Shown here: in pieces, positions 10,636-61,885 of the stretch
Numbering within the stretch: the stretch's first letter is position 1
Layout: each line of letters begins with the position of its first letter
Notes under the pieces: model-generated
What the model was told of the DNA's origin: nothing
Seen by the model: the letters and a program-made list of their open reading frames with translations, nothing else
The model's database searches: none
Source: Sphyrna mokarran
Lineage: Eukaryota
DNA length: 64,000 nt
Assembly (NCBI GenBank): GCA_024679065.1
Contig: JAGIQG010000001.1
Location: 151,590,001-151,654,000, forward strand
Direction: 5' to 3'
Position numbers and translations under genes: made by a program

Positions 10636-12077
10636 CTGCAAACATCCTGAGCTATTGCAGACATTTTCAGCCTCTCTTTACAACAATCTGAGGCTCCTAC
10701 TTACTTCAAGAAAGCGACTATCATCCCAGTGGTAAGAAAAATCAAGCAGCTTGCCTTAATGACTAGTGGTTGGTGGTTGTGACAGCCATCATTATGAAGT
10801 GCTTTAAAAGATCAGTCATAGCATGAATCAATTTCAGTCTTCTGGACTACCTGAATCCACTACAGTTTGCCTAGCACTGCAACAAGTCCACAGCAGACGC
10901 CATTTCTCTGGACCTGCACTCAACCCTGAAACACCTAGGTAACAAGGATACCTATGTCAGACTCCTATTTATTGACTACAGCTCAGCCTTCAATTATTAT
11001 TTCCATGAAACTTATCTCCAAATTCCGTGGCCTGGGCCTTGGTACCTCCCTATGCGACTGGATCCTGAACTTCCTAACTCTCAGACCACAATTAATTGGG
11101 ATTGGCAACAACACCTCCTCCATGATCATCTTCAATACGGGTGCCCCGCAAGACTGTGTTCTCAGCCCCATACTATACTCCTTGTACACCTGTGACTGTG
11201 TGACCAGATTCTCCTCCAATTTGTTTTTCAAGTTTGCTGACAACACCGCTGTAATGGGACGGATTTCAAACAATGACGAGACAGAGTACAGCAATGAGAT
11301 AGAGAATCTGGTGAACTGGTGCAGCAACATTAATCTCTTCCTTGGTGTCAACAAAATGAAGGATATTGTCACTGACTTCAGGAAGTGTAAAGGAGAACAT
11401 CTCCCTGTCTGCATCAATGAGGATAAAGTAGGAAGTGTCAAGAGCTTCAAGTTTTTAGGTGTCAGATTACCAACAACCTGTCCTGGTTCTTTCCATGCTG
11501 ACACTATAATTAAGAAAGCCCACCAACGCCTTTACTTTCTCAGAAGACGAAGGTAATTTGGCATGTCAGTTACGACTCTTATCAACTTTTATAGATGCAC
11601 CATAGAAAGCATCCTTTCAAGTTATATCATAGCTTGATATGGCTCCTGCTCTGCCCAAGATTGCAAGGAACCACAAAAGGTCGTGAATGTAGCCCAATCC
11701 ATTATGCAAACCAACCTTCCATCCTGTCTATAGACTCTGTCTATACCTCCTGCTGCATTGGCAAAGCAGCCAGCATAATTAAGGACCCTACGCACCCTGG
11801 ATATTGTCTCTTCCACTTCCTTCCTTTGTGAAAAAGATACAAAAATCTGAGGTCACAAATGACTCAAGAACAGCTTTCTTCCCTGCTGCTGTTAGATTTT
11901 TGAACCGACCTACCTTGCATTAGGTTGATTTTTCTCTACACCCTAACTGTGACTGTAACATTACATTCTGCACTCTCTTGTTTCTCTCTCTATGAATAGT
12001 ACATGTTGTCTGTATAGTGTGCAAGAAACAATGCTTTGCACTATATGTTAATACATGTGACAATAATAAATCAAATA
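10636..12077 (+). mobile_element. 5'-truncated Rex1/Babar-clade LINE (decayed reverse transcriptase plus 3' UTR)
   Basis: RT motifs [41 protein letters not shown] and KKAHQRLYFLRR with frameshifts; 3' tail CAATAATAAATCAAAT. Confidence 0.9.
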
Positions 12078-30934: not shown

Positions 30935-31091
30935 ACATCACACTGTAACCCGAGGTATTACGAAAGGAGTGAAAGAAGATTTCCGATTAGCCATGGAGCG
31001 GCAGGTTTCCCGCTGTGGGGAAAATCTAATGGTGGTGTTGCATAGATTTTGCATTAATGAGAAGATCATATTGCTTCAAACTCTGATGTGA
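30935..31091 (+). CDS. INTS10: INTS10 terminal coding exon, stop TGA at 31089-31091
   Basis: tgttgcAG acceptor. Translates [51 protein letters not shown], nearly identical to the human C-terminus as I recall it. Confidence 0.97.
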
Positions 31092-45930: not shown

Positions 45931-46405
45931 CTATCATGTGGGTTCTTGGTACCAAGAGCACATATATTTTAATGAATTTGCCCCATTTACAAAACGTAAC
46001 TAATTTTACTTTTTACTCTTTTACCCAGAGTAAATACATACATTACCCAAATATATCCTCTTTTATTAAATTTATGTATGACCTATATGAAGACAGTATA
46101 TGATATTTACACAATTTCACCAGTCTGGAAAGGTTGCTCTTTCTAATTATCTGTGAGATGTTGAAAAGCAATAATGGATATATTTTGCCAGTGGTTGCCT
46201 CCTTCATTGCCTAATGTTCCTCTTTCTTTCTAACATTGCATCAGTGTGCTTCTTCTGAGCCTTCTTTGATTACCAAGGTTTTCCTTGCGTTGTCTTAAAG
46301 TTTGCTTTTCCAGAGCCCTTTTTCTTTCATTATTCCTGAGGAAATGGTTCCTCTTCTTGTCCCCACGCCCTTTTGGGAATTCGCCTTCTCTGCTGGCTGG
46401 AATAT

Positions 46406-46637
46406 ACTGTAGAGATGCCGGCATTGGACTGGGGTAAACTCAGTAAAGTTTTACAACACCAATTTTAAATCCAACCAATTTATTTGATAGTAAATTCGTG
46501 AGCTTTTGACTTTATAGCCTTCGTCAGTCATTGAAGACCAGAACACCTTTTGCCTGATGAAGGCTATTAAAGTCGAAAGCTCGCAAATTTACTATCAAAT
46601 AAATTGGTTGGATTTAAAATTGGTGTTGTAAAACTTT
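46406..46637 (-). mobile_element. Palindromic Penelope-derived element, family B, copy 1, with hammerhead ribozyme motifs
   Basis: About 87-bp inverted arms 46441-46527 and 46554-46641; one-sided tail GAGATGCCGGCATTGGACTGGGGTAAAC; flanking direct repeat GCTGGAATAT at 46396-46405 and 46638-46647. Confidence 0.85.
46549..46587 (+). ncRNA. Putative minimal type I hammerhead ribozyme
   Basis: TTTGC-CTGATGA-A-GGCT attaa AGTC-GAAA-GC-TC-GCAAA: stem I TTTGC/GCAAA, intact CUGANGA and GAAA boxes, 4-bp stem II, palindromic AGCT stem III, UC cleavage site. Confidence 0.65.
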
Positions 46638-46879
46638 GCTGGAATATTTGTCATCAAAGCTATGCTACCACTTGTACTCTGAACCAGGTTTTGAGTGGTT
46701 TCCTTTTCTTTATACATGAATGCTGGGCTTCCCCCTGGGTCCAAGAACTTACATTGCAGAATTAAAAAACATATTTTTACTCCCTTCTTGAAATTATGAA
46801 GTCAATGCACAGAGTAAATTAAGTGAGCCAGAATCCATTTTTAAAATTTAATTATGTCAAAAATAGGCTTAAATTACAA

Positions 46880-51459: not shown

Positions 51460-51615
51460 TCACTTTGCATTTTTAGCTGGGGTCTCTGACTCAGTAGACT
51501 GTCTTTCATCAGTCCATGCCTTTCTGGTGTTCTTCAGTGCAAGTGTTCTCTCTTGGTCCACCAATACATAATCTACTTTTTCATCGGCTGGTACTGTACC
51601 TGTACCATTACTTTT
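51460..51615 (-). CDS. GAB1: GAB1-type terminal coding exon, stop TGA at 51462-51460
   Basis: ttatttcAG acceptor. Translates [51 protein letters not shown] (human ...[38 protein letters not shown]). Confidence 0.93.
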
Positions 51616-53993: not shown

Positions 53994-54262
53994 GTAAGAG
54001 TCTGGCAACACCAAATTTAAATCCAACCGATTTATTTGATAGTAAACCTGCTAGCCTTCGGCGTTTGTGCCTTCGTCAGGCGAATGAGGTGTTCTGGTCT
54101 CCAAAAGCATGCTTATGGAGACCAGAACACCTCATTCGCCTGACGAAGGCACAAACACCGAAAGCTAGCAGGTTTACTATCAAATAAATCGGCTGGATTT
54201 AAAATTGATGTTGCCAGACTTTTACTGAGTTTACCCCAGTCCAAAGCTGGCATCTCTACATC
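53994..54262 (+). mobile_element. Palindromic Penelope-derived element, family B, copy 2
   Basis: About 110-bp near-perfect inverted arms 53994-54103 and 54116-54225; tail TTTACCCCAGTCCAAAGCTGGCATCTCTACATC; TSD GTAAGCAA(T/A)TAT at 53982-53993 and 54263-54274; CTGACGA...GAAA core. Confidence 0.88.
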
Positions 54263-61674: not shown

Positions 61675-61885
61675 CAGTAAGAAGTCTGATAACACCAGGT
61701 TTAAGTACAACCAATTTATTTGATAGTAAACTCACAAACTCTCAGGGTTTGCCAGGTGAACACCTGACAAAGGGCAAATCCCAAAAGCTTGTGAGTTTAC
61801 TATCAAATTGGTTGGACTTAAACCTGGTGTTGTCAGACTTCTTACTGTGTTTATCCCATTCCAATGCCGGCAGCTCTACATCATA
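61675..61885 (+). mobile_element. Palindromic Penelope-derived element, family B, copy 3 (decayed)
   Basis: Inverted arms CAGTAAGAAGTCTGA...TCAGACTTCTTACTG (61675-61847) and the same tail CCAATGCCGGCAGCTCTACATC. Hammerhead boxes mutated (CTGACAA, CAAAA). Confidence 0.8.

Follow-up and report, generated by a model that had tools for sequence, protein, structure and literature searches.

A hammerhead-bearing palindrome of Sphyrna mokarran as a probable truncated insertion of an abundant Neptune-type Penelope-like element

In the shark Sphyrna mokarran a palindrome with a hammerhead ribozyme motif lies between two genes that converge on it, which raises the question whether it is a mobile element in its own right, a ribozyme retained for its effect on neighbouring transcripts, or the remnant of something larger. 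The window analysed here is the whole stretch of 64,000 nucleotides around it (contig JAGIQG010000001.1, positions 151,590,001 to 151,654,000 of the forward strand). Judged from the coding ends, the convergent arrangement described in the initial annotation is correct: the last coding exon of INTS10 (+ strand) ends at 31088, 15.3 kb from the element, and the stop codon of GAB1 (− strand) lies at 51460, 4.8 kb from it. Pfam scans of 83 + 7 open reading frames of the window gave confident names only to INTS10 and to a LINE-type reverse transcriptase; a fragment of the latter kind occupies 10939-11553, within an INTS10 intron.

The 252 nucleotides of the palindrome (46396..46647) fold to −140 kcal/mol, which none of 200 shuffled sequences equalled. 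The inverted arms (46441-46514 and 46568-46641) match at 95% over 74 nt and differ from each other by four CpG changes and one insertion. Both the hairpin and the 10-bp direct repeat that had been annotated around it are confirmed, and no tandem array is present at the locus (Table 1). The left arm had been described as a mirror copy of the ribozyme in which GAAA is changed to AAAA. This change is indeed there, but the damage is greater: stem I has lost its 5′ strand and carries an altered first base on its 3′ side. CpG decay and a junction that took away stem I together account for the mutated mirror.

Table 1. Features of the palindromic element, in positions of the window
Feature	Position	Strand	Remark
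Left target-site duplication copy	46396..46405	+	10 exact bp; family mode 12-13
PLE tail, one-sided, 33 unpaired nt	46408..46440	-	in the full-length copy L062 the tail reaches the ORF start codon
Left arm, tail-bearing pLTR copy	46441..46527	-	stops at hammerhead core
Broken hammerhead	46494..46527	-	CTGACGA retained, GAAA to AAAA (CpG), stem I 5′ strand absent
Centre	46528..46548	+	~2 filler bases and pLTR sequence upstream of the ribozyme, right arm only
Minimal type I hammerhead motif	46549..46587	+	core bases complete; predicted cut after C46582
Right arm, pLTR copy without tail	46530..46637	+	
Right target-site duplication copy	46638..46647	+	10 bp

The motif in the right arm is exactly as first described, with stem I at 46549-46553/46583-46587, CTGATGA at 46554-46560, stem II at 46562-46565/46571-46574, GAAA at 46575-46578, an AGCT stem III and C46582 in the predicted cut position. 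It contains all parts of a minimal type I hammerhead, namely CUGANGA, GAAA, the UH site, stems I and II and a palindromic stem III. A minimal-hammerhead descriptor matches the 64 kb window once, at 46554 (+), against a mean of 0.01 matches per shuffle, and in its strict version finds nothing in 100 shuffles. The covariance-model search that had been proposed as a check returned no Rfam hammerhead family at the locus at E<=10; the Rfam microRNA matches there fall below the gathering score and are dismissed as generic long-hairpin similarity.

Conservation across genomic copies, the absence of which had been named as part of a refutation, is present. From 272 distinct arms collected, the 236 that span the motif were scored; both boxes and the UH site are kept in 176 of these, and both ribozymes survive in most copies. 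AGCT forms stem III in 223 arms, and the free position N7 is variable. The AAAA form occurs in 28 of the 236 arms and every time follows a C, which identifies it as CpG decay. With both arms mostly intact across the family and all AAAA arms in CpG context, the notion of one live and one deliberately dead ribozyme is not supported. From one subfamily to the next stem II changes in both length and sequence while its pairing is retained, and its second pair is paired in 235 of 235 arms, in three pair types. Among the 42 distinct arms with the stem II length of the window copy, whose rows are related, 94% of the cells are paired and 14 cells show a double-sided change (0 of 500 shuffles). The covariation in these related rows is modest, as double-sided change is found in two pairs only, a count reached by 470 of 500 shuffles. 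Pairing that is kept through sequence change nevertheless points to selection on the hammerhead fold in the parent elements.

At the window locus itself the situation is different. Relative to the hairpin, the hammerhead fold is calculated to cost 41.8 kcal/mol, against 2.6 kcal/mol for the right arm alone, and a read-through RNA is predicted to hold the ribozyme trapped against the complementary arm. Since that arm would sequester the motif, a role in read-through RNA is unlikely, and the ribozyme is probably not active at this site. For comparison, the available text of Cervera and De la Pena 2014 (PMC4209133) gives no cleavage for single minimal motifs and weak cleavage for dimers. We regard it as extremely improbable that the ribozyme or hairpin has been kept to cut or terminate INTS10 or GAB1 read-through RNA. 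The position between convergent genes, the complete right motif and an AATAAA in each arm (46598, +, and 46479, −) would suit such a function; however, it is the broken motif that the strand facing GAB1 transcripts carries, the complete one comes after its own complement, the differences between the arms are those of neutral decay, and the same window holds two further copies of the family. The window ribozyme is likely a passenger, trapped in a long hairpin and decaying at CpG sites.

The origin of the arms becomes evident from their relatives. A first look yielded 2,718 family candidates in the 2.77-Gb genome (40 of them scored), and genome-wide counts are 7,450 for a 32-mer upstream of the ribozyme and 8,150 for a 29-mer downstream of it. 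The 29 best other copies all have both outer ends in common, with flanks and centre individual to each. In 16 stretches picked for close hit pairs, the same inverted arms enclose inserts of 0.17 to 3.5 kb, and one copy (L062) has the direct order pLTR-ORF-pLTR, its tail continuing into the ORF start codon. Another copy (L063) contains a 660-aa open stretch that matches RVT_1 at E 2e-9 and GIY-YIG at E 3e-4; the latter match falls narrowly short of the cut-off, which GIY-YIG passes in L062 and L065. A single ORF with a reverse transcriptase of the Penelope-like element (PLE) type, a C-terminal GIY-YIG domain and a CCHH motif is present in L063; the window copy lacks it. The L063 protein further has the motif DKG and a CX4CxxC linker (residue 554), and its closest relatives are shark sequences with 83-88% identity. 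A CX2-5CxxC linker upstream of GIY-YIG is assigned to Neptune and Nematis, and stated to be absent in Penelope/Poseidon, in the accessible part of PMC8557442. By these motif definitions, not by a tree, the family would be classed as Neptune-type. Among the copies L202-L226 the ORF starts are 99% alike, yet the adjacent ribozyme stem II varies widely, which echoes the high hammerhead variability noted for metazoan PLEs in the part of PMC4209133 at hand. The pLTR (L062:420-500) also shows a CCAAT box. With it come two GT sites that look like splice donors, a CTAAT like a branch point and, 19 nt ahead of the core, a CAG like an acceptor; these signals resemble the Drosophila Penelope intron, which ends at helix I.

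The layout of the window element is equally familiar. As described in the available portions of PMC8557442 and PMC3846280, an EN+ PLE insertion unit consists of an inverted 5′-truncated pLTR, a one-sided 30-40-bp tail and a target duplication. The family likewise has pLTRs in direct or inverted order with a one-sided tail of 30-40 bp, and 50 of 53 short palindromes are flanked by a target-site duplication of at least 8 bp. The head-to-head pLTRs, the variable 5′ truncation and the partial tandems are also shared with the units described there. Unlike in those descriptions, both halves are here cut to ~90-130 nt in thousands of copies, and the duplication, which surrounds the centre of a symmetric site, keeps closely to 12-15 bp (72 of 85). 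The motif itself resembles the minimal hammerheads of metazoan PLEs in the extra base after CUGANGA, the G-C closing pair, the palindromic stem III and the many variable subfamilies, and opposite-strand hammerhead pairs 100-700 bp apart were there taken to be truncated PLEs (PMC4209133, as far as the text seen extends); that same portion names no sharks and does not describe the end pile-up at the motif that is reported below. The element also shares with animal non-LTR retrozymes (10.64898/2026.07.22.740005, in part) that it is non-coding, hammerhead-bearing and PLE-derived. In contrast to these retrozymes, which are described as head-to-tail tandems with the ribozymes on one strand, it is head-to-head with one motif per strand; with inverted arms and no tandem array at the locus, an assignment to the non-LTR retrozymes was rejected.

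The inverted pLTRs, the one-sided 33-nt tail and the target duplication of the window element are therefore all published features, and the locus is an ordinary PLE-derived retroelement stub. The family comparison upholds the PLE origin, pLTR hammerhead, inverted pLTR layout and target duplication proposed initially. It contradicts the proposal of a distinct non-autonomous element, as the same arms flank inserts of very different length as well as direct pLTR-ORF-pLTR copies, and the centres are mostly unique. No new mobile family is represented here; the element stands at the short extreme of the range of sizes in which a very abundant Neptune-type PLE occurs.

Short palindromes are nonetheless strikingly frequent. 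Genome-wide, inverted anchor pairs number 141, 383, 1094, 526 and 158 in successive 30-nt gap bins from 0 to 150, giving at least 2,300 short palindromes (2,302 with exact anchors and a gap up to 150), and the peak corresponds to arms that both just include the ribozyme; for the window copy this gap is 91. This excess (1094 + 526, against 66 pairs at gap 301-330) would be expected of a self-propagating non-autonomous mini-element, in which the ribozyme frees a hairpin RNA that is re-inserted by PLE protein. In rotifers, pLTRs suffice for mobilisation in trans (PMC3846280, in the text available), and the pairs L002/L004 and L014/L023 share both centre and stem II type. Self-propagation is nevertheless very unlikely, since the centres are distinct in 46 of 52 palindromes, which have no shared internal structure, no stem II subfamily of the long element is without short palindromes, the size series is continuous, and the ribozyme is predicted to be unable to fold in the hairpin. 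Three of the five repeated centres span different stem II types. As the centres differ between copies, the short palindromes were likely made afresh at each insertion.

The positions at which the arms end bear on how this happened. They were recorded in 90 position-ordered loci that cover the first 96 of 100 anchor matches listed. Of the 95 exact-anchor arms among these matches, 22 have their end 0-29 nt upstream of the core and 2 in the 30 nt beyond; 13 stop inside the motif, and 33 extend beyond the 289-nt limit. Close to the ORF end there is a second, weaker cluster of 5′ ends, at ~240-290 nt upstream of the core (10 of the 95 arms among the matches listed). Arms with and without a tail end at the same place (medians +4 and +8). 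Eleven arms without a near mirror partner, two of which have a very short partner, end in the 0-29 nt zone as well, against one in the next 30 nt, so that hairpin instability alone is not the source of the pile-up.

Several causes of this pile-up were considered and rejected. A trace of ribozyme cleavage does not agree with the low number of palindromes in the 0-30 gap bin, nor with 111 arms that show no excess near the cut site. Run-off at a capped RNA start is argued against by the ORF-bearing copies, of which 0 of 17 end in the 0-29 nt zone and 8 of 17 end 77-136 nt upstream (8 more loci of the 25 have no scorable anchor); with G as the next base beyond the arm end in only 6 of 30 cases, such a run-off gains no support there either. 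For a spliced template, no junction was seen in 18 non-standard copies of 137, and two candidate splice junctions had 0 matches genome-wide. A stop after a fixed length is incompatible with tail and tail-less arms that end together, not 33 nt apart. A stop of the cDNA at the folded or protein-bound motif is our tentative explanation.

The two arms of a palindrome share the stem II type in 48 of 50 cases, against 9% between insertions. Arm length and junctions were compared in 66 palindromes, ~30 of them picked for likeness to the window element and 35 by gap size, so that the proportions are not genome-wide. In this set it is the tail-less arm that extends further upstream in 27 palindromes and the tail arm that does so in 14, with both equal in 25; the junctions show microhomology in 17, are near-blunt in 20 and contain filler in 29. 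A mirror formed by fold-back, with the cDNA snapping back to serve as its own template, or by the loss of central sequence from a long palindrome once it was inserted, would readily give both arms one sequence type; the centres often lie on short self-complementary words, and junction palindromes were read as self-priming by Arkhipova 2013 (PMC3846280, in the portion available). In the 27 palindromes with additional upstream sequence, however, the tail-less arm cannot be a copy of the tail arm, filler occupies the 29 centres mentioned, and the 11 near-partnerless arms share the end zone, which makes these routes improbable.

Overall, two start sites with priming from both target ends account for the pattern better than fold-back or self-propagation. 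Most probably, the window element is a 5′-truncated insertion of the Neptune-type PLE with two head-to-head ribozyme-bearing ends, for which double-primed reverse transcription is likely. Double priming is here read from fossil insertions, and deletions of the centre after insertion could also yield unequal arms and unique centres.

Further information comes from the target sites. Of 85 insertions picked for a duplication of 9-20 bp, 72 fall within 12-15 bp. Measured from the centre, CTG is found 7-12 nt to the left in 60 of the 85 and CAG 7-12 nt to the right in 56, and both are present in 37, against 11%, 10% and 1.2% at random window positions; the swapped orientation was found in none. After similar sites had been collapsed, 67 independent sites remained, with the left CTG in 48, the right CAG in 41 and both in 27. 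The spacer is 16 in 15 and 17 in 10 of these (background 0.2% and 0.1%), and on the left as on the right, motif and duplication are most often 2 nt apart. Among 35 sites with exact motifs, 34 have the 12-13-nt core fully duplicated on the tail side, and 20 have it so on both. Among 90 held-out element ends outside the 85, CAG starts 11-15 nt out in 56 and CTG in 1 (background 8.4%). The window site is a poor fit, with its 10-bp duplication, a left CTG and CAT instead of CAG on the right. A fixed register of the element ends with TG was rejected, as the ends scatter over 7-10 nt.

Two-fold symmetry is a feature of the empty sites, in which CTG-N16(17)-CAG brackets a 12-13-bp duplication. From this symmetry and the duplication we infer a symmetric cut, as from a dimer, that would leave 12-13-nt 3′ overhangs. 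A published PLE target of the CTG-N16-CAG type was not found in a search that lay outside Repbase, Dfam, subscription papers and supplements, and PMC12602865 holds nothing on targets. Twelve of the 85 insertions (L012, L013, L019, L055, L067, L068, L083, L085, L136, L137, L141, L199) lie in similar target sequences, apparently one spot with a perfect CTG-N16-CAG in a LINE, which we take to be CR1-like. At the element's own ORF start (L062:643-664), ATG, 16 bases and CAT follow each other in 25 of 25 loci, with the TG-N16-CA geometry of the target; this could favour insertion into own copies and the formation of tandems.

A possible course of events combines these observations. The element protein, probably as a dimer, would nick each strand ~2 nt 5′ of CAG and thereby create 12-13-nt 3′ overhangs, each of which would prime cDNA synthesis on the same RNA variant. 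One cDNA would start where the tail ends, next to the ATG, and the other ~33 nt further in; both would stop soon after the ribozyme, and the two would then be connected by end-joining with microhomology or filler. Related behaviour is reported for the Poseidon element PAc of Anolis, whose protein cuts and extends both strands in vitro and is predicted to be a dimer, with two internal start sites that bound the tail and a ribozyme cleavage that is dispensable in vitro (Frangieh 2024, PMC11167929, in the text available). According to the same text, PAc prefers ATT and starts 111-118 nt inside the ORF, whereas the shark family uses CTG-N16-CAG and has a tail ending at the ATG; its protein, unlike that of the Poseidon element, has the Neptune/Nematis linker. 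In the stretch from ribozyme to tail (L062:570-630) a long hairpin is present, the 3′ side of which includes the end of the tail-less arm, and it is like the stem-loop at the PAc start sites.

The Neptune element may, as a proposal that we advance with reserve, be a two-fold symmetric dimer integrator that reads CTG-N16-CAG, leaves 12-nt 3′ overhangs and has both ends primed on one RNA variant, with the hammerhead serving as a landmark for the cDNA stop and not as scissors. If so, the complete insertion cycle of a PLE would be recorded in fossil form by the thousands of mini-palindromes. The family statistics outweigh the single locus, as they bear on target cutting by PLEs and on the origin of tailed inverted repeats. 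The symmetric target and the end pile-up are the parts of the finding worth an experiment, and the symmetric target with its fixed stagger provides a precise substrate and a yes/no prediction for an existing in vitro assay.

Two further members of the family were noticed in the window. A second short palindrome, of another stem II subfamily, lies within GAB1 at 54006-54262, with the tail on the right, a duplication of ~12 bp and a CAG half-site. A third palindromic copy, more diverged and of a related subfamily, occupies 61675-61884.
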